In this document: positions 9,513 to 50,640 of the stretch, piece by piece | Layout of the letters: every line of letters begins with the position of its first letter | Position numbering within the stretch: position 1 is the first letter of the stretch | Origin: a virus | Lineage: Duplodnaviria > Heunggongvirae > Uroviricota > Caudoviricetes | Virus record (IMG/VR): IMGVR_UViG_3300028833_000081 | Location: 7,731 to 71,730 of that record | Direction: 5' to 3' (one strand) | DNA length: 64,000 nt | Position numbers and translations under genes: made by a program | Notes under the pieces: generated by a model | Told to the model about the DNA's origin: nothing | Seen by the model: only the letters and a program-made list of their open reading frames with translations | Database searches by the model: none

Positions 9513-9797
9513 ATGGCTCTTATCACTTCTTCTAACATTGCCAAGGCTGTTGCTGAAGCCAAGAAGATCACCATCGCTCAGGCTGAAGACATCGTCAAGG
9601 CCGTGATCGACGAAACCACGAAGGCTCTCGTTGCTGGTTCCGAAGTCCGTATCAACGGTCTCGGCACCCTCAAGACCTCCACTCGTCCGGAACATCAGGG
9701 TGTCAACCCGAAGACTGGTGCAAAGCTGACTGTCAAGGCTATGAAGGTGGCTACGTTCACCTCTGCTAAGGCTCTCAAGACGGCTCTTAACCCCTAA
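9513..9797 (+). CDS. hup: HU/IHF-family histone-like DNA-binding protein
   Basis: VRINGLGTL..RPEHQGVNPKTGAKLTVKA..F motif; AAGGA RBS; own terminator at about 9816-9848. Confidence 0.93.
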   Translation: MALITSSNIAKAVAEAKKITIAQAEDIVKAVIDETTKALVAGSEVRINGLGTLKTSTRPEHQGVNPKTGAKLTVKAMKVATFTSAKALKTALNP

Positions 9798-9890: not shown

Positions 9891-12800
9891 TTAGAATGCC
9901 GGAGTGAAGAACGGCTCACCCATCGAGAAGAAATTAGCTCTATACAACTGCTCGTCAGGGAACAATGCACTGTTTCCAGACAGAGTATCATTGAGCTGAG
10001 AGATTCCTTCAGCAACAACAGGGTCAAATGATACCTGCGGAGCCGGAGCGTTGCTACTACTTCTTGGGGCAGGAGCACTAGACGAGCTACTCGTAGGAGC
10101 AGCAGAAGTACTAGTACCACTACCGCCAGCAGCTGCACTCGGAGTAGAAGCAGATGTTGTAGGAGATGCTTCATTAGCGCTCGACATATTGAATTGCTGT
10201 GAAGCTTCGACCTGTTGGAACAACGATCCTTCAGGTGCAATATGTCTAGGCACTACTGTAATCGGGCCATGACCAGTGTTGACAAACGTAGTATCATCAA
10301 CTTCCTTGCCATAGGGTTCGAGCTCACGGTTAATTTCGTTCTTAACTCTAGCCCACTCGCCCTTGACAGTATTATAACGCTTCTTAGAAGGTGCCATAGC
10401 AGCTGGCATACCCTTAAGTTCTACGTGCCATCCTTCATCCCAGCCATCATGCGGAGATCCCTGCTTTTTCGCTTTATTCGTTGCCTTAGCAGCACCACGA
10501 TAAAGACCATACTTTGCAGCAATAGATCCCGGAGCAGGATTTCTAGATTTCAGCTTTCCGGCACTTCCACCGAAGAGCAGGTTAGCCTGTGCAGTATCCA
10601 AGTCAACAGCTCCACCATATTCATGGTTAGAACCACCAGGCACTGCGGCAAGGTTGTACTTTTCATATCCCGGAACTCCAGCTTCCTGCAAGAACCATCC
10701 CTTAAACAAGTCTGCTTGTTTAGCATGGTCTCTTCTGCCAGAGGAAATATACAGTTTTTTCTTGTATTTCTCGTGGAATTCCTTTGCAGCTAAGATAAGG
10801 CTCTTTCTCAAGTCAGGTTTAATACCTTCCAACGAGGAAGTATTTCCGGTCATGTGCTCTTGAATAAGTTTCTTTTCATCCTCATTCAGAGCCGTTTCCA
10901 TGCCGTTATACTGTCCAAGCGGGTCAGCATCAAGAGAATCAAGGTTATCGTGGATACGATTAGCCCATCCATTATAGAACCTAGCCTTGTCAGAACTCTG
11001 TCCATATCTGGCTTGAAGCTTAGCAATAGTATCCTCCTTTGTCGGGTTAAAGCCCTTCTGCTTTGCACTAATTTGCATAGCAGTAATATCGGAAATACCC
11101 TTGCCAGTCCAAGCAGCATCAATCAGGGATGCCTTTTCAGTATTGGTGAGTTTTTCGTATTCAAGTCCAGCTTCCTTAGCGGATTTCTTAGCAGTTGCTT
11201 CGTAGCTCTGCACCTTGTCTTGCAACAATTTCAAAGCTATTTCAGCCTGAACTTCCTTGCTAGTATCACCATCCTTGTTACAAAGGAGTGCACCGTTATA
11301 CTCGCCCTTACGGAATCTTTCGAAGTCAGCCTTGGTGCAGATTCTAACGATGTTTCCATCTTTAGTCTTTAGATAGAAATCAGTAATGCCTTCCTTCATC
11401 GCAGCTGCGGTAATACCGTAACCAACAGTAGGAACGTCATTCTTATTCTGATAGACTTTGAATCCGGCAGCCCCTTCATGCTTCTTAATCTTTTCAGCAG
11501 CGATTTCATAAGGACTTCTAGTCTCAGCTTCGGCAGCAGCCTGTTGTGCAGCTTCAGCTACAGGAGATTTATTTTCTCTCTCAATAGCCTCTGCAATAGA
11601 TTGAGCAGTCTGTGCGCCAGCTTGCTGTTGGGCTTGCATTTCCTTAATGACAGCCATTCTAGCTTCATATTGATACTTTGCAAGATGGTTTGCAACATCT
11701 TTCTTGTCTTTAGTGATTTCTTCGAACTTCTTTTCTACTCTAAGGTTGAACTCTGCTCTTTCCTCAGGAGTCATCTTGCCAGTATCTACCTCGAAGATCG
11801 AGCCAGTTGCAGGGGTAGATTTACTCTTCTTAGCAGTTTCTTCAAGAAGTTTTTCGGTAGCATCGGCAGTTGAAGCAGCCTTCTTTTCTGTCTTCTTTAC
11901 ACTGTTGGGATCGTCTGCTCCGCCAGTGAAGAAGTCTTTAGCATTCAGAATGAAGTCGGCGATATGCTCGGCGACCCAAGAGAATGCTCTAGTCTTATCG
12001 TCAATAAAGTTAAAGATGGTATCAGACATTCCCGGAAGACCCATAACCATCATCAACACTTCCACGATGATACTTATGACAGTACCAATGGGAGGGAAGA
12101 CTAGGCTAATGGCACCAAACAGAGCGATATCGATAAGCATCTTAAAGAATTCTTTGACGAAATCGATAATCTTCTGTCTAGAGACTTCACGCTTCTGCGC
12201 ATCATTCATTCCACTTGTATCTGTGCTATCACCCATAAGGGTCATGAAAGTGGCAAACGAAGCTGCCATTGTGATAGCCTTACCAACCTTGGGAAGTTTG
12301 GCAACAAGCTTATTCTTGCTGATCTTCTCGAAGAACTTAACAAGAGTCTTCTTATTCTTGAATATCTTGGAAATAAGAGGCTTCACAAGATTCTTGAGGA
12401 TAGTCAAGATACCACCAATGGGGTTAAACAAGAATCCAAAGATAGACACACCTGCAAACAAGCTCTTCACAGACTTGATTTTAGAGAGCAAGCCAGCCTT
12501 GGTCATGCCCGTACCTGCAGCCTTTGCAGCATCCTTGGCAACGGCAGTTACACCACTCTTTGCTTCCTTCATCAGCTTTTCTGTGTTAGCAAGCTTATTC
12601 TTCAATTCTGCAATCTTCTTAGAATTCTTAGCAGTCTTTTTCATCTTGTTAAGCTTACTAAGGCTCTTCTCGATGGCTGTCTTTTCGCTCTTCAAAGCTG
12701 CGAGAGACTTTCCAGTAGCAGCTGCCGCTTCAGCGCCCTTAGCTGCCTTTGCCACATCACTTGCAGCATCAGCCGCCTTAGCAGCTTTAGCAGCAGCCCT

Positions 12801-15800
12801 GCCTTCCTTAGTGAATCTTTGCAAGAAGTTACCAATAGCTCTGGTACGCTTATTCTTCTGGAGTACCTTGGACAATCCAGCTACGCCTACACCAGTACCA
12901 CCAAGACTTATGATGGTAGACAAAGCATCGGTGGAATCTTCGGTATTTTCCTGCTGCTGCTTCATTGCTGCTTTATGTCTCTTCTCGTCAGCTGCTTGCT
13001 TAGATACATGCTCCATATTGAGGAATGAAAGAAGCTGATCAAACTTACCGGACATGATAGCAAGGATCTTGTCGCCAGTAGTGGAGTTAGGATCCTTCAT
13101 CACAGCCTTGATAAGTTCCTGACCTTTAAGAAGGCTAGGATCACCAGAGAACTGAATAAAAAATCTCTTAATACCAGCCCAAGGAAGCTTTGCAACAAAT
13201 CCGGCAGCAGACTTGAATTTCCTAATGGCAGCCATGGTAAGAGTACCCATTTTGCCAGCAACAGTCGTAATAGCAGAACCAATCTTTCCACCAATACCAG
13301 ACTTAGCAAGCTTGTAAGCACCATAGCCTAATGCACTAGCACCTAGACCGATTCCAAGACCGTTAATACCAAGACCAGAAAGTGCATCCATACCAGGTAT
13401 CAACACATGCTTGCCAAGCATGTATCCACCAAGACCTGCACCTGCCAAGGCACCAGCCTTAAGTCCGACCTTACCGATCTTCTTAGCAAGCATCGGAGTA
13501 CCTATGAGACCACCAATACCTGCACCGAGAGCAGTTCCTAAGCCGCCCATTCCAACCATGCTACCAAGAGTATGACCGATGAATCCGCCAGCTCCAAGAC
13601 CGATACCCATCTTAGCAACGTTCTTATAGAACTCAGTTCTGACCTTTTTATAGTCCATCTTGCCATTTTCATCTTTGTATGCCTTCATAGGCGTACCAAA
13701 GAAGAAGGTGTTCATCGGGCCAGCGATACCAGCTGTAAATGCACCTTGCAAGACATGAAGCAGACCACCCTCATACTTGTCGCCATGACGCTTACCAACA
13801 AGGAATCTGTCGAGAAGCGAACCACGTCTACCGAGGACTCTACCTGCCACAGAGCCAACGAGAGCACCTTCGACACCACCCATTGCCAGACCAGCAAGAC
13901 CCATAGTAGCCATTACGCCTCTAGTGGACTTGTTGTCACCAATGATGAACTTTACAGGATCGTTCATGAAGGACAATCCATGCTTTTCGAATGCGTCTCC
14001 GGCTTTCTTACCAAAGAAACCACCAATGATTCCCTTGATAGTAGTACCAACAGCACCAAGTTCTTCGTACTTGCCAGACTTTTCGTCTCTAGCACCAAAG
14101 AGGAACTTTCTAAGTTTTGTATTCTGAGCTACAGCTCCACCTGCACCACCCATGAGAGCACCCAGAATAGGTGATCCCATAAACAATGCGCCAGCAACAG
14201 CACCAGTACCACCGCCAGCAACAGCGCCCTTCATATTTTGTTCAATGAAGTATCTGTAGCGTTCCTTTTGATCAGGACTATCGCCAAACAGTGCGCTCTT
14301 TAAGCCTTCTTTATTAGCAAGAAAGTCATTCTTGATATCGTGAGCAGCAAGTTCAAGGTCATGACCCTTATCAATACCCTTCTGAAGAAGTCTCTTAAAC
14401 GGATTCCAAGATTTTCTTCTCTTAGCTGCAACATGAGCTTCTTTAGCTTCCATCTGGTCAGACATGATATCTTCCATGTCTTCCAGAGTTTTACCAGTGA
14501 TTTTCTCAATGTCGATATATCTATTAAGATGATTAGCGTAGACACCATTCTTCTTAAGGAACTCTGGATCAGCCTGTACAAGCTGCTTAAGAGCCCATAT
14601 ATAGACTGTCTTATCGAGTTCATCAATATTTCCGAGTCTAACCTGCCTACCTACATAGCTGTAGATAAGACCCATCTGAGGAACTTTACCGTCCTTTAGA
14701 GACTTACCAGTAAGATAGCTTTGCTTAAAATTGGTATAGACAGGCTGTCTTTCAAGCTTATTTTCATCCCAATCGGAGAATAAGCTAATAGGCTTATCCA
14801 TATTATTGGGATCGATAATGTTAAAGATTTCACTAGGCTTAAGAGTAGCAATTCTTCTAAGATAGTTAGTAGCTTCTCTAGCTCTAGCCTTAGAAATATT
14901 ACCAAGCTCTACCTGTCTCTTTACATATCTATGAATAACGGCAATTGCGCTGTCCTTGTCAGGTCTAAACTTTTTGAAGGTATAATCCTTGTCATACCAG
15001 TCAGTATCGTCATCAACCTCACCACCTTCATCATAACCTCTAAGTCTAAGGGATTCAAGTTGGTTAACGAGGTTAGAACCCTTGCTAGTCTTCATCACAT
15101 CGCTAGGAACAACATACTCGCCTTTATGAACAATACCTGCAGGCTGATACTTAGCTCCGGGGCCAGTGTAACCACCAGATGCAAGACTCAAGAATGCGTC
15201 ATTTCCAGTAACAGACGGTTCAGCAGCTGCGGCAGCACTTACTTCAGGATGAAGAGGAGTATACTGGCGTTCCGCCATGCCTTTTCTTGCACGTTTAGAC
15301 TTTATCGTCCTATAATTGGTAAGATCAGCCTCTGTATTCGTGAAGATCTTTGACTCATTACGTCCATCGAGCTGTGCAGCAAGGTCTCTCTGCCCTCTTG
15401 TCAGGGTTCTTCCAGCATTTGCGATACCTCTTCTGGTATGAGCCATGACTATGCTAGCCATATCACCGAGAGATCTTTTTCTCTTAGTACCTCTGTTATG
15501 GACAGCAGCACCCTGATTACCGAAGACAGTGAAGAATTCCTCGATTAAGCTAATGCAATAACGGAAGAATTCTCGCTTATCTATACCATAGGAATTAAAG
15601 ACTTTTCCAACAGTGTATCTGGCTCTTGCAGGAAGAGACTGTAAGAGTTCCGTATATGCTACGTTTGCGGCGGCAACGTTATGTCTAGAGTCCTTATGTT
15701 CTTTTCCTCTAAGGATTAAACCGACTTTGCCATTCCAGTTATTGATGATGATATACATCAACTCACGAATTTCTTGCGGCTTAGTAGAGAAAAATTCAGT

Positions 15801-18200
15801 TCCCTGCATCTCAGAGATATGATGAATAAGGTCTGCCTTAGTATAGGTACCGTTATCAATCTGTATCTTGAGATTCTTTCTTAATCTGATAATTTCCTTT
15901 TTCCAGCGTTCCTGCCATGGCTTATCATCGCCATGTCCCTTAGGGATCTTTTTCGGATCGCCGTAAACAATATCTTGAGCTTTCTCTGCCCATTTAGCGT
16001 CATCCATTTCGAGAATGGCTTTAACGCTGTAGTTAACAGTATAAGAGTCTCCCTTTGCCGCTTCAAAGCCAGTAGTCACGCCCTTAGCTACTTGGTCATA
16101 TGCAGCATCACCGACTCTACCAACAGTATCCCAGAAAGTCTGTCCTGTAGCACGCATGGCTCTATCAATGACTTCTGGATCATCCATGTCCTCGCCAGTA
16201 AACTGGTTATCTACAACAACACCTTTAAGGTTCTTGCTGTTTTTCATGATATAGTCAATAGAGTGCTCGGGAGCTTCTTTCAACGATTCAACATGGTACC
16301 CAGACATGGTACCATTCTGATATTTGTTGAGAGACTTATTGAGCTTTGCAACTTCAGGCTTATGATTACTGTCTGCCCAATACTTCTTCATTTCGGCAGC
16401 ATAATCTTTCTTAGTAAGAGACTTGGAGTCTCTAAGCTTCTTGAGCTTAGCCTTAAGGTCTTCTACGCTGATCTTTGCAGCTTTTAGTTCCGCTCTGTGT
16501 TCTTCAATGAATCTTTCAGCTTCATTATAGTCAGAACCAATCTTACGTCCAGCAATGAACTTGTCATTCGTCTGTGCATTCTGTAAGAACTGAATTTCGT
16601 CAGCAGTACGAATCTTTGCACTGTTTCTGTTGGCAGTGTTAACTTCCATTCTAAGAGAAGCTGCGAGCGATGCGAAGCTATCCCCACCAGAAACACTCTT
16701 TCCAGCAACGATAGATGCTGCAACTAGATATTCGTCGCCATGAGCTGTGCCTATGGTGAAATTAAATCCCTTGTTAACAGCATCAATGATGTATCTAGCC
16801 ATCTCATAAGTCATCTCCTTCTTTCTCAAAGGAGTAGCCTCTTGGTATGTCTTGTATGTTGACAAGACACCTTCGGCAATATGAACAACGCTAGATACGC
16901 CCACAAATTCGCTACTTTCAATCTTGAGCTTTTCTTCAAGCTTGTTAACGAATTTGCCAGTGGCGTAGTTAAACTGTCTTCTGTTTTCATTCTTAAGAAG
17001 CTCACCCATAGACTTACCAGTCTTTCTGGTAACGTCTGCACCGATGAGTTCCTTAATATCAGTCAACAATTCCGGAATCACGACAGTAAGAGCTTTCTTA
17101 CTTTCACCATCCCAGTCAATCTTTCCTCGTTTATAATCGGCAGAATTTACAGACTGAAGTGTTCTGGAAGATCTCTTTCCGAAAAATTTCAAAAGATCAC
17201 TTATCTTTCCACTACCACTCACGTTAGCCATGCTATTGAGAGTGATTTCCAGAAGGCCGGAAAGATTCTCATCCATCTTCTTAAGGAATTGGACAAGAGG
17301 AAGCTTTCCAAGAAGCTGACCACCAGCAAACTTCATCAAGCCACCGGGGTTAGCCATCATCTTGGCTAGATCCTTATATTCGTCAACGGCGCTAAGGATC
17401 GGGTTATTCTCAGCAAATCTCTTATCAAGCTCCTTGGCATAAGCTCTGACATTAAACTTACCATCTTCAAAAATACCTTCGATCTTGCTAGCATCCCAAT
17501 CCGTATTTTCTGCGGCTTGCATTTCAGCAGAACTCTTTGCAAGCTGTTTAATTTCTCCGAGAAGTTCGAGAGAGGAAGCATAGTATTTGGACTGAGCTTC
17601 AGCCATAGAAGCAAGTCTCTTGTCAAGTGCGGCAAGAGAACTGAAGTTCAGTTCAGCAGACTTAGCAATGGCGTTCGTAGTCTGAGCAGCGCCACTAGCA
17701 ACGCTACCCGCAATAAAGCCCGCATTATCCCTGTTGGATTTTGCGATATCAGTTACAACTTCTTCAGCAACAGATTCGACGACACCACCAAGCTTGTCAT
17801 AGTCAATGTTCGAATCATCGTCACTGCCAACGTCGTCAAGATCGCTCTTTCCGCCTTTGCCGTCATCAAAGCCTTCAAAGCCTTTAAGAGCATCATTAAA
17901 TTCTTCATTAGCCTCTTCGTCTTCAAACAAATTGTCAAAACCAGAGGCGTTCCTATCATAGAGCTTACCAGTCTTAAGCTGTTTGCCCCAGTCAGTAAAG
18001 CTTTTAGCAGAAGTCTTGAAAACATCTTTCATGTCACCGAAAGCTTTTCCGGTGGCAGTTTCGCTAACATTAAGGTCTCTAACGCCTTCCTTGATGTCCT
18101 TGGCTACGGTCGATAGGTTAGGGAATACGTTTTCCTTAACGGTATCTACAGCCAAGTCTTTGAAGCTGTTAACTAGGTTCTTTAAAACGCCAAGTTTCAT
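9891..18200 (-). CDS. Tape-measure-like tail protein with C-terminal lysozyme-like and M15 peptidase domains (2,769 aa)
   Basis: ASGGYTG..AGIVHKGEYVV motif, Gly-rich hydrophobic repeats, KKHEG..DVPTVGYG (GH24-like), ISSGRR..SNHEYGGAVD..GWHVE (M15); AGAGG RBS before 18200. Confidence 0.85.
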   Translation of the reverse strand: MKLGVLKNLVNSFKDLAVDTVKENVFPNLSTVAKDIKEGVRDLNVSETATGKAFGDMKDVFKTSAKSFTDWGKQLKTGKLYDRNASGFDNLFEDEEANEEFNDALKGFEGFDDGKGGKSDLDDVGSDDDSNIDYDKLGGVVESVAEEVVTDIAKSNRDNAGFIAGSVASGAAQTTNAIAKSAELNFSSLAALDKRLASMAEAQSKYYASSLELLGEIKQLAKSSAEMQAAENTDWDASKIEGIFEDGKFNVRAYAKELDKRFAENNPILSAVDEYKDLAKMMANPGGLMKFAGGQLLGKLPLVQFLKKMDENLSGLLEITLNSMANVSGSGKISDLLKFFGKRSSRTLQSVNSADYKRGKIDWDGESKKALTVVIPELLTDIKELIGADVTRKTGKSMGELLKNENRRQFNYATGKFVNKLEEKLKIESSEFVGVSSVVHIAEGVLSTYKTYQEATPLRKKEMTYEMARYIIDAVNKGFNFTIGTAHGDEYLVAASIVAGKSVSGGDSFASLAASLRMEVNTANRNSAKIRTADEIQFLQNAQTNDKFIAGRKIGSDYNEAERFIEEHRAELKAAKISVEDLKAKLKKLRDSKSLTKKDYAAEMKKYWADSNHKPEVAKLNKSLNKYQNGTMSGYHVESLKEAPEHSIDYIMKNSKNLKGVVVDNQFTGEDMDDPEVIDRAMRATGQTFWDTVGRVGDAAYDQVAKGVTTGFEAAKGDSYTVNYSVKAILEMDDAKWAEKAQDIVYGDPKKIPKGHGDDKPWQERWKKEIIRLRKNLKIQIDNGTYTKADLIHHISEMQGTEFFSTKPQEIRELMYIIINNWNGKVGLILRGKEHKDSRHNVAAANVAYTELLQSLPARARYTVGKVFNSYGIDKREFFRYCISLIEEFFTVFGNQGAAVHNRGTKRKRSLGDMASIVMAHTRRGIANAGRTLTRGQRDLAAQLDGRNESKIFTNTEADLTNYRTIKSKRARKGMAERQYTPLHPEVSAAAAAEPSVTGNDAFLSLASGGYTGPGAKYQPAGIVHKGEYVVPSDVMKTSKGSNLVNQLESLRLRGYDEGGEVDDDTDWYDKDYTFKKFRPDKDSAIAVIHRYVKRQVELGNISKARAREATNYLRRIATLKPSEIFNIIDPNNMDKPISLFSDWDENKLERQPVYTNFKQSYLTGKSLKDGKVPQMGLIYSYVGRQVRLGNIDELDKTVYIWALKQLVQADPEFLKKNGVYANHLNRYIDIEKITGKTLEDMEDIMSDQMEAKEAHVAAKRRKSWNPFKRLLQKGIDKGHDLELAAHDIKNDFLANKEGLKSALFGDSPDQKERYRYFIEQNMKGAVAGGGTGAVAGALFMGSPILGALMGGAGGAVAQNTKLRKFLFGARDEKSGKYEELGAVGTTIKGIIGGFFGKKAGDAFEKHGLSFMNDPVKFIIGDNKSTRGVMATMGLAGLAMGGVEGALVGSVAGRVLGRRGSLLDRFLVGKRHGDKYEGGLLHVLQGAFTAGIAGPMNTFFFGTPMKAYKDENGKMDYKKVRTEFYKNVAKMGIGLGAGGFIGHTLGSMVGMGGLGTALGAGIGGLIGTPMLAKKIGKVGLKAGALAGAGLGGYMLGKHVLIPGMDALSGLGINGLGIGLGASALGYGAYKLAKSGIGGKIGSAITTVAGKMGTLTMAAIRKFKSAAGFVAKLPWAGIKRFFIQFSGDPSLLKGQELIKAVMKDPNSTTGDKILAIMSGKFDQLLSFLNMEHVSKQAADEKRHKAAMKQQQENTEDSTDALSTIISLGGTGVGVAGLSKVLQKNKRTRAIGNFLQRFTKEGRAAAKAAKAADAASDVAKAAKGAEAAAATGKSLAALKSEKTAIEKSLSKLNKMKKTAKNSKKIAELKNKLANTEKLMKEAKSGVTAVAKDAAKAAGTGMTKAGLLSKIKSVKSLFAGVSIFGFLFNPIGGILTILKNLVKPLISKIFKNKKTLVKFFEKISKNKLVAKLPKVGKAITMAASFATFMTLMGDSTDTSGMNDAQKREVSRQKIIDFVKEFFKMLIDIALFGAISLVFPPIGTVISIIVEVLMMVMGLPGMSDTIFNFIDDKTRAFSWVAEHIADFILNAKDFFTGGADDPNSVKKTEKKAASTADATEKLLEETAKKSKSTPATGSIFEVDTGKMTPEERAEFNLRVEKKFEEITKDKKDVANHLAKYQYEARMAVIKEMQAQQQAGAQTAQSIAEAIERENKSPVAEAAQQAAAEAETRSPYEIAAEKIKKHEGAAGFKVYQNKNDVPTVGYGITAAAMKEGITDFYLKTKDGNIVRICTKADFERFRKGEYNGALLCNKDGDTSKEVQAEIALKLLQDKVQSYEATAKKSAKEAGLEYEKLTNTEKASLIDAAWTGKGISDITAMQISAKQKGFNPTKEDTIAKLQARYGQSSDKARFYNGWANRIHDNLDSLDADPLGQYNGMETALNEDEKKLIQEHMTGNTSSLEGIKPDLRKSLILAAKEFHEKYKKKLYISSGRRDHAKQADLFKGWFLQEAGVPGYEKYNLAAVPGGSNHEYGGAVDLDTAQANLLFGGSAGKLKSRNPAPGSIAAKYGLYRGAAKATNKAKKQGSPHDGWDEGWHVELKGMPAAMAPSKKRYNTVKGEWARVKNEINRELEPYGKEVDDTTFVNTGHGPITVVPRHIAPEGSLFQQVEASQQFNMSSANEASPTTSASTPSAAAGGSGTSTSAAPTSSSSSAPAPRSSSNAPAPQVSFDPVVAEGISQLNDTLSGNSALFPDEQLYRANFFSMGEPFFTPAF

Positions 18201-18315
18201 ATGAGTCCTCTCATAAATTCCATTATCAAGTTCCACTTTTTAAAATTTTATTTTTTTTTTATTAATAATAAAGAAAAAAAAATATGAGGAACTCTATGAT
18301 GAAAGGAATACTCTT

Positions 18316-21709: not shown

Positions 21710-22348
21710 ATGGAAACTATCAAAGATATCTTTAACAGGACTAGATTATGTGAGGGACTAAGGATTCCTCGAACTGTAGTTATTGCGAACTACAATCGCA
21801 GTGATTACGAAGCGGCTTTTATTGGAAAAGTCGCAACATTTCTTGAACGTAGTGGTGTACAGAATCTTGTCATGCGCTACAATCATAATTGCTTTATCAA
21901 CCCGTTCATGAAGGTCATGTGTGCTGATCTCAGTGTGAGCCGTGGTCTGACGGTGCTTCCGGATTTTATCAAGAATGAAGAACCTGAAGTGGCAATTTGG
22001 TCTGGCGAAGATTCTAGAGGTGACAATGTAGAAAGGTTCTACACTCCTCTCAAAGACAGAGAATTGCTGAATATCTATGTTGCATCGAGGCGTATTGGTT
22101 TGTACTATGGCAAGCCGTTCGCTCTGACAGCACAGATTCGTAGGGCATTCTTGGGCAGTGAAGACACGACATTTGGTCATATCTCTCAGACTCTCCGTAA
22201 TGGAAATTCTATTGATAAACAGTGGCTTCAAAAGGTAGCCGTATTGACTACTTATTTCACTGTGTCTGAGCAAATCTACGATATGGTGACTGAAAATCCT
22301 AACAAACCCTATTTGTTTGATACGGAGAACTTCCATGAAACAATGTAA
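21710..22348 (+). CDS. Hypothetical protein, first gene of the ubiquitin-like cassette (212 aa)
   Basis: AGGA RBS; overlaps the E2-like start by 14 nt. Confidence 0.75.
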   Translation: METIKDIFNRTRLCEGLRIPRTVVIANYNRSDYEAAFIGKVATFLERSGVQNLVMRYNHNCFINPFMKVMCADLSVSRGLTVLPDFIKNEEPEVAIWSGEDSRGDNVERFYTPLKDRELLNIYVASRRIGLYYGKPFALTAQIRRAFLGSEDTTFGHISQTLRNGNSIDKQWLQKVAVLTTYFTVSEQIYDMVTENPNKPYLFDTENFHETM

Positions 22349-22943
22349 AGTCTATGTTCCTCTAGATTTTGTGGTAGAGAAAAGAAGTGGCTCAAGAGTG
22401 GGCTACAATTTCTACGATGTCGAAAACTACAGCAGCAGCGAAATTCGCCGTGTTACAAACAATTCTGAAGTGAATTCTTTCATTAACGGTCTGCTCGGCG
22501 CTGATTTGTCTAATCATCCGTATATCGAACGGATTGAACTCAAATCTAACCAGAATTATATTTATTTCTGGCTTAAGAAGCCTATTGTGCCTACCATGGT
22601 AATCAAGGAAAATCGTAAGTACATTCTTAGCGAAGAGCACAAAGCAAGACTCGTGAGCAGGGATGATCATCTTCAGATCGATTTTCTTAGAATGCAGATT
22701 CCCAACTCGATTGACAATGAACTCAGAATCTGGGCGATGAATAAGTACAGTGGTGAAATCTCCACTCATCCGAATTCCGGTGATGACCATATCTGTTATG
22801 GTACGTATCGTGACAGAGTCAAAGCTGGAAAGTGCCAGATTAGCCATATTATCGGCTTGCTGAACATCGCAAACTTTGACAGTGCATATCGTAATTTTAG
22901 GTACGAACTTGATTGGGATTCTATCCCCAGTGAGGCTTACTAA
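22335..22943 (+). CDS. E2-like ubiquitin-conjugating fold protein (prokaryotic E2), 202 aa
   Basis: THPNSGDDHICYG matches the E2 HPN-x(n)-IC active-site signature (Cys codon 22794-22796), followed by LL..AN..SAY; GGAG RBS; TAATG overlap with E1. Confidence 0.72.
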   Translation: MKQCKVYVPLDFVVEKRSGSRVGYNFYDVENYSSSEIRRVTNNSEVNSFINGLLGADLSNHPYIERIELKSNQNYIYFWLKKPIVPTMVIKENRKYILSEEHKARLVSRDDHLQIDFLRMQIPNSIDNELRIWAMNKYSGEISTHPNSGDDHICYGTYRDRVKAGKCQISHIIGLLNIANFDSAYRNFRYELDWDSIPSEAY

Positions 22944-23611
22944 TGGCTAGACACGCAGTGATTCTCGGAGCCGGAGGAATTGGCTCCAACATTAAACGAG
23001 TGTGGCAGGATAATTTTAGTGGACAGGTTATCACTATTGACGATGACACAATCGAAGCTTCTAACCTTAACAGAAGCGATTTCACGCTTCATAGTATTGG
23101 TCAGCACAAAGCTGATAAGTGCTACAGGATCTCCACTAGAGAAGAATTCTTCAATAAGGCCGGAGACTTCCTTCGTGAAATCTTCCAGTCTGAAGGTGGT
23201 GGTATTAACGGAATGAATGAAAATTCCGTGTTTACTGAAGACGCCTTCGATTGGTTGCGCAATCACGAATATGTTACCGTGATCGACTGTCGTGATACTA
23301 TCGATCCTACAACGATCTTCCGTGAAATTGATTTCAAGCTTACCTACAATGGTGCGTTTGGCATCAGATTCGAACTTAATCCGTTCCACTCCAATGACTC
23401 TGTCTTTGGTGCTGAATTGGAAGCTGTTCGTTATGGAACAACACCGTCGTTCTGTCTGCCACCTCAATGGCTGGCATGGATGGTTGTGAAGTTCTACAAG
23501 GAACATCGTGATATGGTGAAGGACAAGAATGCGCATAAAATTATTGCGTACAACCTTGAAAACGAAATTCTGTCTCACCTGAAAACAGACTTGCCGGAGG
23601 TTGCAGTATGA
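22943..23611 (+). CDS. ThiF/MoeB/E1-family adenylating enzyme
   Basis: GAGGIGS Rossmann loop, DDDTIEASNLNR, GQHKA and VIDCRD motifs. Confidence 0.9.
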   Translation: MARHAVILGAGGIGSNIKRVWQDNFSGQVITIDDDTIEASNLNRSDFTLHSIGQHKADKCYRISTREEFFNKAGDFLREIFQSEGGGINGMNENSVFTEDAFDWLRNHEYVTVIDCRDTIDPTTIFREIDFKLTYNGAFGIRFELNPFHSNDSVFGAELEAVRYGTTPSFCLPPQWLAWMVVKFYKEHRDMVKDKNAHKIIAYNLENEILSHLKTDLPEVAV

Positions 23612-24267
23612 GTGCGAATAACTACAAGCTCATCGACGGATTAGACTTAAAGCAAATCTACGAAATTTTGGACAAAAAGAATGTGGTATGTTTTGAGTCC
23701 TATGACTCTGAACACTACTTCTACTATGACCTCTCCGACGAAGCCTCCATTCCCGTCTTCTTGGGTTTGCTGTGTTCCGAAGAAGAGACTATTGGGCAAA
23801 TCTTCGCTTGTGATCGTGGAATGTATGGTATTGCAGCAAAGACTGTTATCATGCGGCTTATCGATCTCATGGAAGATTATCCGGAATTTGCTGGGTTCGT
23901 CAGAGACATTTATGTCGAAGATTACAACGGCAACAGGCCGTACCAGAAATTCCTCTTGTGGCTTTTGTCCAAGAAACTGCAATACGTTCTTGAAAATGAG
24001 ACGAGCAGCAGCTTCAACGCAAGACTCTGCATCGCAAAGATTCAAAAGGTTATCCAGAGGATTGGATTTGGAAGTGAATTCCTTTTGCCGATTCTCGCCA
24101 ACTGTGGTTTGAATATCATAGATTCCAATGGTTTCTATGCTGATAGCTTCTTTGAATCTATTATAAAGAACGATCTTGAGGCCCTGCCTCGCTCTGCGGA
24201 AAGGTTCTCCGAAGAAGGATTCTCTGTCGAGACATCTGACAGTGCTGCTTCGGTGTTCCTCAGTTAG
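23608..24267 (+). CDS. Hypothetical protein coupled to E1 (219 aa)
   Basis: ATGA overlap with the E1 stop. Confidence 0.75.
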   Translation: MSANNYKLIDGLDLKQIYEILDKKNVVCFESYDSEHYFYYDLSDEASIPVFLGLLCSEEETIGQIFACDRGMYGIAAKTVIMRLIDLMEDYPEFAGFVRDIYVEDYNGNRPYQKFLLWLLSKKLQYVLENETSSSFNARLCIAKIQKVIQRIGFGSEFLLPILANCGLNIIDSNGFYADSFFESIIKNDLEALPRSAERFSEEGFSVETSDSAASVFLS

Positions 24268-24346
24268 AGCATTTTTCAACAGCATATAATAACACGTCTA
24301 ATCAAGTGATTGGACGTGTTAACACAAACAAAAAGGAAAAAACATC

Positions 24347-24877
24347 ATGGCTAGAACCGCTAGTGATCTCAGCGTTGCCGAAGTTGTGAAGGCTTGGAAC
24401 AAGTCTTCTTCGACCATTAAGAAGGTTGTCACAGAACTTGAGACGACCGAAAGCGCACTTAAGACCAAGATTAAGTGCAACAAGGAATTGCAGAGCAAGT
24501 TGAAGAACCTCCGCCCTGAATGGCTGGACATTGACGCGCTCGTCGCAAAGAACAAGACCGCAGTAAAGGCTGCTAAGTCTGGTGCCGCAAGAGCTACTGC
24601 CGCTGCACCGAAGGCCGCTTCCACGGCTGCAAAGACTGCCAAGGCCAACACTGTGACTGTCAAGATTCAGCATCCCCGTAACAGCAGCGAAGCTGTTGAA
24701 GAAACCATCACTTTTGACGATGCCGCCGAACTCCGTATGGGTCTTGAATCCTTTGCGTCTCGTAACGCAACCTACAAGACCGAACCGTATGTGAACGGTT
24801 CTCCGGTGCTTCTCAGCAGCATCAAGAACGGCGATGTCGTTGAACTTCGCCAGAAAGACGCTGGTGCCGCGCTGTAA
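24347..24877 (+). CDS. Ubiquitin-like protein: coiled coil, Ala/Lys linker, beta-grasp domain, C-terminus KDAG-AAL
   Basis: The last ~75 aa follow a beta-beta-alpha-beta pattern ending YVNG..IKNGDVVELRQKDAG, typical of ThiS/Ub folds; AAAGGA RBS. Confidence 0.72.
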   Translation: MARTASDLSVAEVVKAWNKSSSTIKKVVTELETTESALKTKIKCNKELQSKLKNLRPEWLDIDALVAKNKTAVKAAKSGAARATAAAPKAASTAAKTAKANTVTVKIQHPRNSSEAVEETITFDDAAELRMGLESFASRNATYKTEPYVNGSPVLLSSIKNGDVVELRQKDAGAAL

Positions 24878-24893
24878 TTGAAAGAACAGAACA

Positions 24894-24925
24894 AAAAGAG
24901 GGCTAAGCAAATGCTAGCCCTCTTT
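24894..24925 (+). terminator. Intrinsic terminator after the Ubl gene
   Basis: AAAGAGGGCTA...TAGCCCTCTTT followed by a T-run. Confidence 0.75.
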
Positions 24926-24944
24926 ATTTTTGGAGATTAAAATC

Positions 24945-26165
24945 ATGGGATTCGAAATTGACGTAACCCCGAAATTCCTTGAAGGGAAAATTTTCTTCCC
25001 TCCGAAAGTTATCAGACGATTGGACGATCTGCGTAAGGATTTTGCCCATGGCAACGAATATGCAATGTTCTTGCACGCCGAGGTTGATCTAGAGAACCTC
25101 GAAATATGGGTAGATGAAGACATCTATGATATCCCGAATCAGAAAGTTGGCCCTGCTACAGTCGAAATCGAAGATTCGACTTTTGAAATTGATCCGGAAA
25201 CTGGCTATGGTAAGAAGCCTCTCGACCGTACTCTGAACTGCGTTGTTCATCGTCATCCTACTGGTGTTGACAACTTTAGTAGTACTGACAATGAATACAT
25301 CAATGTGATGAATCCGATTTCCTTCTTGTATCAGGAAGGTTACTATGTTCCTAAGGCTCGTATCAACGTTCCGTGGGGCGACAAGATTCTTCCGTTGTAT
25401 GTTTCTCCTTTCCTCATCTACAACGATGGCGAAAAGGATGAATATATCCCGCTCGACGTTCGTCATACGAACTATCAGTATGGTCGCTACGGCTATGGTT
25501 ATGGCTATGGTTATAGCAGCCCGTACGGATTCTATGATCCTGAAACTCATGAATACATTCCCAAGCAGCATTGGGATCGTGATCAGGGTAAGATGGTCGA
25601 TAATCCGGAATACGAAGAACGTAAGGCTGCCGCTGAAGCAAAACAAGCCGAACTCGATAAGGCTCCGAAGCCCATGACCACCAAGGACAAGATCGATCAG
25701 GCTATCAAGGATGCCGAACCTGATCTTGACCTCGATCTCTGTAAGGAACGCATCAGAACCTATGACTACGGCTACTTCCGTAATCGTGGAATGATCGATG
25801 TCGAAGACTTGGAAGATATCGAGGGTTTCATGGATCGCCGTCGGAAACGGGGAAAGAAACAGAAGAACAAGAAGAAGGGAAAGAAGATCTCGTACATGCC
25901 TCGTGGCCAGTACAACTCTTCCGCAAACTTCGATCATGTCTTCGTCGGCGGCGAGGAAACAACCCCGAAACCTGCAGCAGCAAAACCTAGGTCGTTGGTT
26001 GATGCCGAACGTGAGGATCTGTCTTTTGGCGGTTCCTGTATTGAATTCGGTGACGACGGTTTAAGTGATGTTGATTTTGACTCCGAAATCACTCTTGGTG
26101 TTGATGAGGAAATGCAACAACAAGAAGAACTGTTCTTGGGAGTGACAAATGACAACGAAGACTAA
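24945..26165 (+). CDS. JAB/JAMM (MPN+) metallo-isopeptidase with long low-complexity C-terminus (406 aa)
   Basis: Upstream Glu (NEYAMFL) plus exact HxH-x7-S-x2-D motif (HRHPTGVDNFSSTD, 25248-25289); GGAG RBS before the ATG at 24945. Confidence 0.88.
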   Translation: MGFEIDVTPKFLEGKIFFPPKVIRRLDDLRKDFAHGNEYAMFLHAEVDLENLEIWVDEDIYDIPNQKVGPATVEIEDSTFEIDPETGYGKKPLDRTLNCVVHRHPTGVDNFSSTDNEYINVMNPISFLYQEGYYVPKARINVPWGDKILPLYVSPFLIYNDGEKDEYIPLDVRHTNYQYGRYGYGYGYGYSSPYGFYDPETHEYIPKQHWDRDQGKMVDNPEYEERKAAAEAKQAELDKAPKPMTTKDKIDQAIKDAEPDLDLDLCKERIRTYDYGYFRNRGMIDVEDLEDIEGFMDRRRKRGKKQKNKKKGKKISYMPRGQYNSSANFDHVFVGGEETTPKPAAAKPRSLVDAEREDLSFGGSCIEFGDDGLSDVDFDSEITLGVDEEMQQQEELFLGVTNDNED

Positions 26166-26658
26166 AGCCGAACCTAAGAAGTTCAAGAAGACTACGAGTC
26201 AGGAAAACACTTTTGTTTCAAGGTATGGCGACAGTCGTACCTTTCCTAGAATCTCGTTCAGCGAAAAATACTTCATGGTGAACATGCAAGACCTTGTCAA
26301 AGGTGCGAAGTACGAAGATCTCAAGGTTACGCCCAAGTTCTTGGGTGAATCCAAGACTATCGGAAAGTACATGATTCTCGATTTGAAGGACTTTGCTAAG
26401 CTTATCGATAATGATTTGATTCGAAAAGATCTTGTGAAGACTGCTCAAGAGTCCTTGCAGGAAGATGCCTCTTCGGATGACTATTTCAAGATGATGTACT
26501 CCAACACATTGCGCCATCTTGACTATCTCTTGTCTGAAAAGGCTTTCGCATCTTTCCAGTTTAGCTCTTTCACTCGTGAATTCTTGACTAAGAACATGAG
26601 CGCCTTGTCCACGGCTTCTAGAAAGGTCATCGTGAGTAAGGAGGCCTCGATTGGATAA
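26149..26658 (+). CDS. Hypothetical protein (169 aa)
   Basis: Overlaps both neighbours; GGAG RBS. Confidence 0.75.
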   Translation: MTTKTKAEPKKFKKTTSQENTFVSRYGDSRTFPRISFSEKYFMVNMQDLVKGAKYEDLKVTPKFLGESKTIGKYMILDLKDFAKLIDNDLIRKDLVKTAQESLQEDASSDDYFKMMYSNTLRHLDYLLSEKAFASFQFSSFTREFLTKNMSALSTASRKVIVSKEASIG

Positions 26659-27193
26659 TAACCTTGAATTGATTGACTCGTGGAGACACGAGTTCGGGGT
26701 TGAAGCATCGTCTAAAGATATTCTGGATCTAGCTACAAAAAATGTAGCTGCTGCGGAAAATCTAAGTTCCGATAAACTCGTGCAAGTTGGTGCGGCTCTC
26801 ATCAAGCCGGATCTGTCTTACATGATTAGCTCCAACCTCACTCGATTCAATGGTGTATATCCTAAAGGCTTCTGGGCGAAGCATGACACTGATCCTGAGA
26901 CTTCCAGCACAGGCCTCAGGAAAGGTGATATTGCAATACACGCTGAAATCAGACTCATCAATAATGCAATGATAACTGGATTCGTCCATAACGCAGAAGA
27001 TTGGCGTGAATGCCTCTTAGTCCTAAGTACATTCCCTTGTGCTCACTGTGTAAGTGCGCTGATGGAACTAACTGAGATTGAATTCTTACTCGTACTGGGG
27101 AATACCTCAATCAACACTCCGCAAAAGCAAGAGAAGGCTAAAGAGCTTCTCAAGTGGTTTAATACAGACCAACAGCGAGTGATGCATTATTAA
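26651..27193 (+). CDS. Zinc-dependent cytidine/dCMP deaminase-family protein
   Basis: QVGAALI, HAE and PCAHC motifs; GGAGG RBS with TTG start. Confidence 0.85.
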   Translation: MDNNLELIDSWRHEFGVEASSKDILDLATKNVAAAENLSSDKLVQVGAALIKPDLSYMISSNLTRFNGVYPKGFWAKHDTDPETSSTGLRKGDIAIHAEIRLINNAMITGFVHNAEDWRECLLVLSTFPCAHCVSALMELTEIEFLLVLGNTSINTPQKQEKAKELLKWFNTDQQRVMHY

Positions 27194-27580: not shown

Positions 27581-27600
27581 TTTTTGCTCCTTGGTTAAGA

Positions 27601-27671
27601 AAAACGAGAAGGGATTCGAACCCTTGACTATCCCCAAGCTGGGGATCGCTTTACCACTAAGCTACTCACAT
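27601..27671 (-). ncRNA. tRNA-like element with atypical anticodon arm (pseudo-tRNA)
   Basis: ATGTGAG TA GCTT AGTGGTA AAGC G ATCCC CAGCTTG GGGAT AGTC AAGGG TTCGAAT CCCTT CTCGTTT: intact D and T arms, but A33/U37 and no CCA. Confidence 0.7.
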
Positions 27672-27754
27672 TCTTATATACTATCGATATAAAAAATAAT
27701 ACGCAGATTGCTCTGCGTATTACCAAATGGCAAAAAAGTAACTTCATTATAAAG

Positions 27755-28357: not shown

Positions 28358-30631
28358 TTACAGGTTCTGTCTCTTTTCGACAAAGTTGTAAGTGATTTCC
28401 ATCTTTCCTCCAAAGCTGGAATCGATACTATCTGCATTGTCATCAAAGCTAGTACGATCCATGAACCACTTGTGGCTGACAATCATAGCGAACTTCATCT
28501 TCGCCAGTTCTTCAGCTACAGCCAGTTTCTTAACGGAAAGACCGTTGAATGCGCCAACGACAGCATCCTTGTATGCGTCACCTTTAACGCCAGACAGGTA
28601 CTTGCCATCGATGTACACCATAACATTCTTGAGGAATTCCATAGAAGGCGTAAGCTTCTTCTTTTCCTTCAGGTACTTTTCAACATCTTCAATCTTCGGG
28701 ATCGAAGAGAAATTCTTGAAGGCGGCAGTGAATGCCGTATAGTTATAGAAGTCTTCGCTCTTGACGGTTTCCTTGGCAGGGTTGTAACCCTTTGCAGTAA
28801 TACCAAGCGTTGCCAGATATTCCTTTTCCTTTTCGGAATACTTCTTGCCTTCGACAAGCTCTTCTTCCTTAATACCAAGCTGCTTCTTGAGGTATCCGAG
28901 ATACTTGAGCTGGAACTGGTATTCGAGAAGAGCCAGAGACAATTTAGTCATCTTGGCAGCCTTGCTTGTAAAGACCTTGTTTCTGTTAAGGACAGGCACA
29001 GAAGACATGTCAATATCACATTCGATCATGTCGCCCTTGTGCTTCTTAATCACGTCAATCTTGACAGCGGTCTTAGAAAGCTTTTCAAAAGTCTTCTTAT
29101 CGAGAATTACCGGGAGAATCTGCACATTGACGATACCATCCTTGATAAGAGTGAAGTTACGCCATACGGTAGAGTTTACCTTGGTAATCTTAAATTCGTT
29201 CTGCGGGAGTTCCAGTTCAACATCGATCAGGAGACGTGCAGAAAGGTTAGCACGTTCTTCGTTCCATGTAAATCCGTTGATGGGATATCCCTTGTCGATC
29301 ATAGTCATCTTGACCTTGCGTTCTTCAGCTGCCTTGGTAATCTTTTCAACCTGTGCAGCAGTCTTCGCATTCTTCAAGAGTTCTTGTTCTTCAGCAGTCA
29401 ATTCAACCTTGTCAGTAGTCTTTGCAGTAGTACGGTTGTAATTGAATCTGCTATTGCAACAGAGAACAAAGTTGTTGCCACTCTTGAGGTCATCGATGAG
29501 GTCTACAACGCAGTAAGCGTTGCTAGGAGCTTCGTAGTTCGGATCGATCGTTCCACGAGCGCCTTCTTCAAATACAGCAGTAGCGATTTCAGTCTGGAAG
29601 TTGAAGAGACGAACCTTGCCAAATGCAGTAGCATAAAGGCCGATAAACTTGGTATCGCCGATTGCTGCAAGGAGCTTTTCAACCAGACCATACTGAAGAC
29701 GGTCTGCACAGACGTTAGCAGCAGCATACAACGGAGAGAGACCTTCGTCGAGCTTGCTGAAATCTTCGCCAGCATTATCCCCTACAACCTTGGAGGAGAT
29801 AGAGTAGAATTTCGTTACACTTTCAGGAATGTGAACACAGGAGTAGTAATCCTTGTGTTTTTCATCCGGCATAATCACATGAATAGTCTTGCTGTTCTGA
29901 TCGAGATAGAACATCTGTTCGATCTTACGATTGTCAGCAATTTCCTTGGTCAGCGGAACAACCACTGCCTTGGTCATCATACGAGTACTCAGAGCACGTT
30001 CGAACACAGGAACATAGCTATCAAAGTCTGATGCTACGACCTTAGTACCACCAAGAGTTTCTGCCATTTCGGTAAGACGGTCAGAGTCGGCCCAGTATCC
30101 ATATTCAATAATGGAAGCGTTGCCGACAGAGTCCTTAATTTCCTTAAGGGCATTGATTACGTTCGTAAAGGAACTTTCGTTGTGTCCACCATCAGAGAGG
30201 AACACCCAGTTCCAAAGACCGCAATTCTTGTTGTTATCGAAGAGCTTCTTGGTTTCAACAACAGGGTTTACGAAGTCCGTACAACCCATCGGAACAAGGA
30301 ACTTGTCGATAGCGTCCTGCAACATCTTAAGTTCGGTCGGAGTATTGCACTTAGCCATTTCCTTGAGGACAAAGCATTCATGCTTCCCTGCAAAGGCAAT
30401 GATAGTGATTGTGTCCAGATCGGCGATAGTCGAGGACAGACGATTCTTGAGCTGCTTACGCATTTTCGGGAGCGTGTCATACATAGATCCCGAAATGTCA
30501 CAACAGTAAACATGGTTTACTGGTTCAGGCTTAAGAACCTTCTTGGTTTTCTTGGTTTCGACGCTATGCTCGGTGAGATAGAGTCGTGTGTCAATCTTAA
30601 AGCTTCTACTAGATAATGCTTTATTTGCCAT
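28358..30631 (-). CDS. vWA (MIDAS) domain protein (757 aa)
   Basis: CCDISGSM (DxSxS), GCT and FLSDGG MIDAS residues. Confidence 0.85.
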   Translation of the reverse strand: MANKALSSRSFKIDTRLYLTEHSVETKKTKKVLKPEPVNHVYCCDISGSMYDTLPKMRKQLKNRLSSTIADLDTITIIAFAGKHECFVLKEMAKCNTPTELKMLQDAIDKFLVPMGCTDFVNPVVETKKLFDNNKNCGLWNWVFLSDGGHNESSFTNVINALKEIKDSVGNASIIEYGYWADSDRLTEMAETLGGTKVVASDFDSYVPVFERALSTRMMTKAVVVPLTKEIADNRKIEQMFYLDQNSKTIHVIMPDEKHKDYYSCVHIPESVTKFYSISSKVVGDNAGEDFSKLDEGLSPLYAAANVCADRLQYGLVEKLLAAIGDTKFIGLYATAFGKVRLFNFQTEIATAVFEEGARGTIDPNYEAPSNAYCVVDLIDDLKSGNNFVLCCNSRFNYNRTTAKTTDKVELTAEEQELLKNAKTAAQVEKITKAAEERKVKMTMIDKGYPINGFTWNEERANLSARLLIDVELELPQNEFKITKVNSTVWRNFTLIKDGIVNVQILPVILDKKTFEKLSKTAVKIDVIKKHKGDMIECDIDMSSVPVLNRNKVFTSKAAKMTKLSLALLEYQFQLKYLGYLKKQLGIKEEELVEGKKYSEKEKEYLATLGITAKGYNPAKETVKSEDFYNYTAFTAAFKNFSSIPKIEDVEKYLKEKKKLTPSMEFLKNVMVYIDGKYLSGVKGDAYKDAVVGAFNGLSVKKLAVAEELAKMKFAMIVSHKWFMDRTSFDDNADSIDSSFGGKMEITYNFVEKRQNL

Positions 30632-49099: not shown

Positions 49100-50640
<1,541 letters not shown>

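Follow-up and report, generated by a model that had tools for sequence, protein, structure and literature searches.

To our knowledge, the ubiquitin-like (Ubl) systems that have been characterised in bacteria, namely CBASS Cap2, Bil and Bub, are encoded by the host, and wherever a role has been shown it is directed against phages. Conjugation is distinguished from sulfur-carrier chemistry by the presence of an E2 (PMC10557695). The E1s of Bub use an invariant Tyr of the loop as a catalytic residue, which forms an oxyester and passes the Ubl to a Ser of the E2 (PMC11601596). Ubls with added N-terminal domains, predicted coiled coils included, are known in bacteria (10.1101/2024.11.21.623966, Gong et al.). 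Within the largely open-access literature searched, no description of a Ubl-E1-E2-JAB system encoded by a phage turned up, and a 2021 review of jumbo phages makes no mention of them. An earlier note on the DNA analysed here had proposed that it encodes an oligomerising Ubl of Bil type with a masked C-terminal Gly; its observations were partly confirmed and its interpretation partly supported by our analysis.

The stretch of DNA under study, the 64,000-nucleotide window, runs from 7731 to 71730 in a virus record of 135.7 kb with an estimated completeness of 52%. Since homologous contigs reach 179-242 kb, the source is a large, probably jumbo-sized, uncultured phage. All homologous contigs with an assignment are viral, and a pattern-limited scan of GTDB genomes returned no relative of the E1 described below. 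NrdD matches contigs of gut and rumen MAGs at 46-48%, which is uninformative as to the host. Elsewhere in the window, an HU-family DNA-binding protein is encoded at 9513-9797 (plus strand) by the gene with the strongest codon bias in the genome, which has a CATATAA motif upstream as does the Ubl gene. The minus strand carries a tape-measure-like protein of 2781 aa (9891-18236), whose homologue in locus L001 has a weak VanY peptidase match, and a 757-aa protein (28358-30631) with a vWA-like start, recognised by eye from an Asp-Ile-Ser-Gly-Ser motif; the gene for the latter has a codon bias z of 11.6, no Pfam match and a conserved place near the cassette in near relatives. ARAGORN reported a tRNA-Ser(GCT) at 27599-27672 (minus strand) and a tRNA-Arg(TCT) at 50307-50381 (plus strand).

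Gene content of the cassette and its relation to Bil, Bub and PRTRC

The Ubl gene lies in a plus-strand run with the order X, E2, E1, Y, Ubl, JAB, Z and dCMP deaminase, which is kept down to approximately 30% protein identity and held in every locus long enough to display it. The E2-like carrier (22335-22943) has an invariant His145-Pro-Asn motif and an invariant Cys154 (22794-22796), both retained in six loci and down to 19% identity. It had no Pfam or NCBIfam match and no match among cultured phages, and its ESM Atlas features were similar (0.94 and 0.92) to those of Prok-E2_D / PRTRC protein B clusters, in which Prok-E2_D is found in 39% and 89% of members.

The adjoining gene (22943-23611) encodes a minimal ThiF-family E1 of 222 aa with a single adenylation domain and no CxxC pairs (PF00899, E = 1.3e-8), and its score against the ThiF/MoeB equivalog is far under the cut-off. 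The adenylation motifs are invariant, as is Tyr164 of the crossover loop (23432-23434), which is present in 10 homologues and additionally in the distant viral E1 of locus L014. No direct alignment of this loop to that of BubCD (Tyr370) was obtained, and the equivalence of Tyr164 is positional. Cys171 was rejected as the E1 catalytic residue, being not conserved. The JAB/JAMM peptidase (24945-26165) has a complete JAMM motif, with Glu38, His102, His104, Ser112 and Asp115 invariant in three loci and down to 31% identity, and a weak Prok-JAB match (E = 0.054). Its long, variable tail of approximately 230 residues contains Tyr-Gly repeats with basic and acidic patches, is poorly conserved and is much shorter in locus L002.

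Three further conserved genes accompany these enzymes. Gene X (21710-22348) has no family match and keeps its place in the near as well as the distant clades, while gene Y (23608-24267), between E1 and Ubl, is found at the same position in all clades and has no significant family match. Gene Z (26149-26658) and the dCMP deaminase gene (26651-27193) end the run, again in conserved order (26149-27193). Inspected by eye, gene X encodes an invariant Arg10 and a Rossmann-like segment without a Gly-rich loop, resembling an inactive E1 subunit, and the active E1 is without the N-terminal helix that usually bears an Arg. The assignment of X as an inactive E1 subunit found no support in profile tests, in which 16 of 60 shuffles scored equally well.

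As in Type II Bil (BilABCD; Chambers et al., PMC10557695), the phage cassette has separate genes for the Ubl, a Cys-type E2, a JAB and an E1, a short cap follows a conserved Gly of the Ubl (up to nine residues in BilA), and single beta-grasp Ubls with extra N-terminal domains exist there too. In contrast to Bil, which is a bacterial defence locus, the cassette is phage-encoded and includes the three extra conserved genes, and its E2 is of a His-Pro-Asn...Cys type with Prok-E2_D-like features rather than CEHH. In addition, BilD has an IAD-AAD-CYS architecture, whereas the phage E1 is an adenylation domain without an IAD, a CYS domain, zinc cysteines or a conserved loop Cys. The label 'Bil-type' given in the earlier note is thus not exact, given the phage-borne setting and the single-domain E1 with its loop Tyr.

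The E1 recalls that of Bub types I and II (Ye et al., PMC11601596), which is likewise minimal, with a crossover loop that has an invariant Tyr, here matched by position, in place of a conserved Cys; JAB-type processing after Gly, predicted for the phage Ubl, is a further likeness. Unlike the Bub E2, which uses Ser, the phage E2 keeps a Cys after its His-Pro-Asn motif, and all enzymes are separate ORFs, without the Ubl-E2, JAB-E1 or E2-E1 fusions of BubAB, BubCD and BubBD. No match to DUF6527/BubE (PF20137) was found among the eight cassette genes. Judged by its sequence and by the features that define these systems, the cassette is neither Bil nor Bub; it appears Bil-like in Ubl processing and Bub-like in its E1.

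The closest described counterpart in gene content is operon type 6d of Iyer, Burroughs and Aravind 2006 (PMC1779556). Both combine a stand-alone Ubl ending in a terminal Gly with a Cys-E2, an E1, a JAB and an extra uncharacterised protein. We take operon type 6d to be the PRTRC cassette. In its features, the phage E2 resembles Prok-E2_D / PRTRC protein B. The phage E1 scored 19.6 bits against the PRTRC ThiF model, whose cut-off is 144.75, the Ubl had no Prok_Ub match, and HMM cut-offs were not reached. Further differences are that the E2 His lies upstream of the Cys, that the Ubl has an N-terminal extension of approximately 100 residues, and that the phage JAB, with its catalytic Glu already at residue 38, could not accommodate a preceding JAB-N domain.

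Two other viral loci were noted. A distant virus (L014, 5619-7634; IMG/VR 3300005099) has a compact Ubl-E1-E2-JAB cassette whose gene order differs from that of the window. Its E1 has a loop Tyr and its E2 a Cys, and its Ubl is 78 aa long, with a Gly followed by a three-residue cap and no N-terminal head; this Ubl did not align to that of the window and was left out of the homologue counts. In the crAss-like phage cr126_1 (MT774391.1; L019, 281-4648), several genes whose annotations read hypothetical, metalloprotease and 'thiamine biosynthesis' have a Ubl-, E2-, JAB- and E1-like appearance. As in the window, the E1 gene is beside a metalloprotease gene, with probable Ubl- and E2-like genes recognised by reading, but only the N-terminal half of the E1 aligns, and the putative Ubl forms the N-terminus of a longer protein in which a ribosomal L7/L12-like segment appears, by eye, to follow it.

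The Ubl precursor and its expression signals

The Ubl precursor gene (24347-24877, plus strand) encodes 176 aa with a pI of 9.6. Its homologues comprise eight clusters at 65-100% identity and one homologue at 27-33%. We regard a reverse-strand ORF at 24302-24910 as a shadow of the Ubl gene, because the homologues and the called genes lie on the plus strand. The protein was unrecognised by Pfam, NCBIfam, PADLOC and PHROG and had no sequence likeness to defence profiles; when a profile of its Ubl domain was run against 1.84 billion representatives, only its own cluster and repeat-like noise came back, and an ESM Atlas feature search gave no usable match.

At the level of predicted structure, the C-terminal part agrees with the earlier reading of a beta-grasp-like domain. 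Residues 99-174 model as a ubiquitin-type beta-grasp, and in four structure searches the best matches to this region were SUMO and ubiquitin folds, with modest scores. Residues 100-174 of the model align with residues 21-97 of SUMO1, a segment that ends at the reactive Gly of SUMO1. The domain itself (residues 101-173, 24647-24865) ends in Gly173 (codon 24863-24865), which is followed by the three-residue cap Ala-Ala-Leu (24866-24874, 255 Da). Conservation of this Gly in homologues, on which the earlier proposal depended, was found in all 11 distinct homologues; the Gly-Ala pair is likewise invariant, whereas the downstream cap varies between one and three residues, its ends differing even among near homologues and a single Ala following the Gly in the distant clade. 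Ahead of the domain, residues 74-100 (24566-24646) form an Ala/Lys/Pro-rich, basic and presumably flexible linker with a pLDDT below 50, and the length of this linker differs among homologues. The proposal of a masked-Gly precursor with its own expression signals next to a JAB, whose catalytic motif is intact, is supported, although a precursor with a masked Gly is in itself ordinary.

The gene, linker, Gly codon, upstream hairpin, codon bias and terminator that the earlier note described were each present. Upstream, an AT-rich motif with a CATATAA core (24283-24292), overlapping TATAAT at 24285-24290, may act as a promoter. Its ATAT core is kept in seven loci, and related motifs occur within 80 nt upstream of 33 of the 141 ORFs in the genome, the HU gene included, a count uncorrected for chance. 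Directly downstream, a leader RNA hairpin of 13-14 bp with a 4-nt loop (24290-24321, z = -6.3 against shuffles) includes the 13 pairs claimed for 24291-24320, one of them a T-G wobble, and folds far better than shuffled sequences. It is kept in seven loci, with the stem ending 25-30 nt before the ATG, and its sequence is altered by compensatory and G-U changes, which points to an RNA structure. Its covariation score exceeded those of 500 of 500 shuffles and of all slid controls, a result that is not to be read as a probability because the sequences are related, and no Rfam family was matched at the gathering score. If the CATATAA motif is a promoter, the hairpin would form the 5' end of the transcript, which is the usual site of an mRNA stabiliser, and a role as a 5'-terminal stabiliser is probable. 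An A-rich, unstructured leader then carries a Shine-Dalgarno-like AAGGA (24333-24337), also found in the seven near-clade loci compared.

Between the Ubl and JAB genes, a hairpin with a T run resembling an intrinsic terminator (24895-24931, z = -5.1) occupies the corresponding site in every near locus, and its stem differs from locus to locus. The codon bias of the Ubl gene is significant and ranks 12th among the 141 ORFs. In the distant clade (L002, L010 and L011), both the leader hairpin and the terminator are absent and the Ubl and JAB genes are tightly coupled, indicating that neither element is essential to the system. For the same reason, the reasonable suggestion that the Ubl is made in excess over the enzymes applies to the near clade only; here, the signals would imply a high Ubl copy number.

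The N-terminal head

The earlier note had described the N-terminus as an oligomerising coiled coil and the Ubl as a multimeric modifier that cross-links its targets. Neither description is supported as stated, since the evidence on the helical head (residues ~8-66, 24368-24544) leans towards a compact, helix-turn-helix-like fold. When AF2 was run with the homologue alignment, the head was modelled as four short helices (10-19, 24-30, 35-44 and 46-51), residues 31-34 forming a turn, at a pLDDT of approximately 80, and residues 23-42 (24413-24472) also carry a helix-turn-helix-like pattern. All near homologues have Ser, Thr or Asn at position 23; Thr34 never varies, and Gly32 occurs in 3 of 11. 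Capping residues and a Gly are what is expected at the helix caps and turn of a helix-turn-helix. In the distant homologue, all nine helix-turn-helix core positions are hydrophobic, these positions having been picked after inspection.

If residues ~10-66 instead formed a parallel coiled coil, the same conjugation system would attach an oligomeric modifier that cross-links or sequesters the tagged proteins. The heptad impression is real in near homologues, where the power at a period of 3.5 residues is significant throughout (p 0.001-0.006), with hydrophobic residues at 10, 17, 24, 31, 38 and 52, Asn45, and 10 of 14 a/d positions occupied accordingly. It is lost in the distant homologue L002 (p 0.087), whose heptad core is broken by Asp and Ser. 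Helix-turn-helix folds likewise have core residues seven apart, and the periodicity therefore does not discriminate between the two. Single-sequence AF2 of residues 1-75 did give one long helix (10-74, pLDDT 90), but this helix passes through the invariant Pro57 and is broken when the alignment is used. The invariant Thr34 and Lys41 would fall at core positions in one register and Glu35 in the other, and the Gly32 of three homologues, a Ser-rich stretch at 20-23 and Pro57 also argue against a continuous coil. Weak matches to coiled-coil families were obtained, and profile matches of the head were sub-threshold for helix-turn-helix and coiled-coil families alike. A precedent exists in the coiled-coil Ubls predicted in five Type II Bil and three Bub operons (10.1101/2024.11.21.623966).

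Other approaches did not separate these folds. A homodimer prediction for residues 1-70 from an 11-row alignment scored 0.02 against a mark of 0.42 and gave no answer either way, matches in fold searches with the full Ubl were taken up by the Ubl domain, and tblastn of the head against phages and plasmids found none. Weighing the models and the conservation pattern, we consider a helix-turn-helix-like head somewhat the best-favoured assignment, a coiled coil a good deal less likely, and another helical fold rather improbable. The cross-linking modifier that would follow from a coiled coil is accordingly the strongest alternative to our reading, though doubtful. The net charge of +11 over residues 1-100 would suit the predicted nucleic-acid binding.

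A proposed tagging pathway and its meaning

We propose that the Ubl is probably the modifier in a ubiquitin-like conjugation system that belongs to the phage itself, an abundant, JAB-trimmed tag whose helix-turn-helix-like head may serve in nucleic-acid tethering. To judge from its expression signals, the Ubl would outnumber the enzymes, because an internal promoter would yield a short mRNA that is shielded by the 5' hairpin and in most cases terminated ahead of the JAB gene. By analogy with BilC and BubC, the JAB would then cut off the cap after Gly173. The minimal E1, whose key residues are invariant, would adenylate Gly173 and transfer it to a thioester on Cys154 of the E2, probably through an oxyester on Tyr164 as in Bub, or else directly. 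Because the E2 has a Cys, the likely relay runs from the adenylate via the Tyr oxyester, or by direct transfer, to the Cys thioester and on to a target lysine. Perhaps aided by X, Y or Z as adaptors, the E2 would attach the Ubl to lysines on proteins of the phage or the host, and this conjugation may be undone by the JAB. Taken jointly, trimming, relay and conjugation are likely. The cargo that conjugation delivers would be the helical head, which is compact and most likely helix-turn-helix-like, together with its flexible basic tether, and this combination makes it most plausible that conjugates tie their targets to DNA or RNA rather than cross-link them by coiled coils. As a function in its own right, nucleic-acid tethering of targets is a tentative proposal.

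Two other explanations fare less well than this conjugation system. An abundant Ubl, free or conjugated, could be activated yet act as a decoy that saturates the E1 and E2 of host Bil, Bub or CBASS systems; the JAB would remove host tags, and the head would be no more than a localisation or solubility module. Host Ubl systems do work against phages, and the dedicated expression signals suggest more Ubl than enzyme; however, a decoy could do without a conserved E1 and E2 of its own, the clade retains the cassette stably with a fixed gene order, and the Ubl is unlike defence profiles, which makes counter-defence of this kind improbable. Least likely is a ThiS/MoaD-type sulfur carrier whose thiocarboxylate modifies tRNA or DNA bases while its head binds the nucleic acid. 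The ThiF-family E1, the nucleic-acid-binding type of head, the dCMP deaminase that closes the run and the nearby tRNA gene would fit, but the cassette includes an E2 in which His-Pro-Asn and Cys are conserved, none of its genes was recognised as a rhodanese, desulfurase or thiouridylase, and the ThiF/MoeB equivalog scores are far under the cut-off.

Taken together, the retention of the whole kit in fixed order across the phage clade suggests that the virus itself uses this chemistry. A Tyr-type E1 working with a Cys-type E2 would bridge the Bub and canonical relays, and the meaning of the tag hinges on its N-terminal head, which would make it either a nucleic-acid tether or a multimer. In the most specific and speculative form of our proposal, which we think less probable than tethering in general, a hybrid relay with a Tyr oxyester on the E1 and a Cys thioester on the E2 attaches a DNA-binding helix-turn-helix, carried by a basic tether, to selected proteins and so reversibly parks them on the phage or host chromosome. 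If true, the tag would be a covalent localisation tag, rather than one for degradation or blocking.
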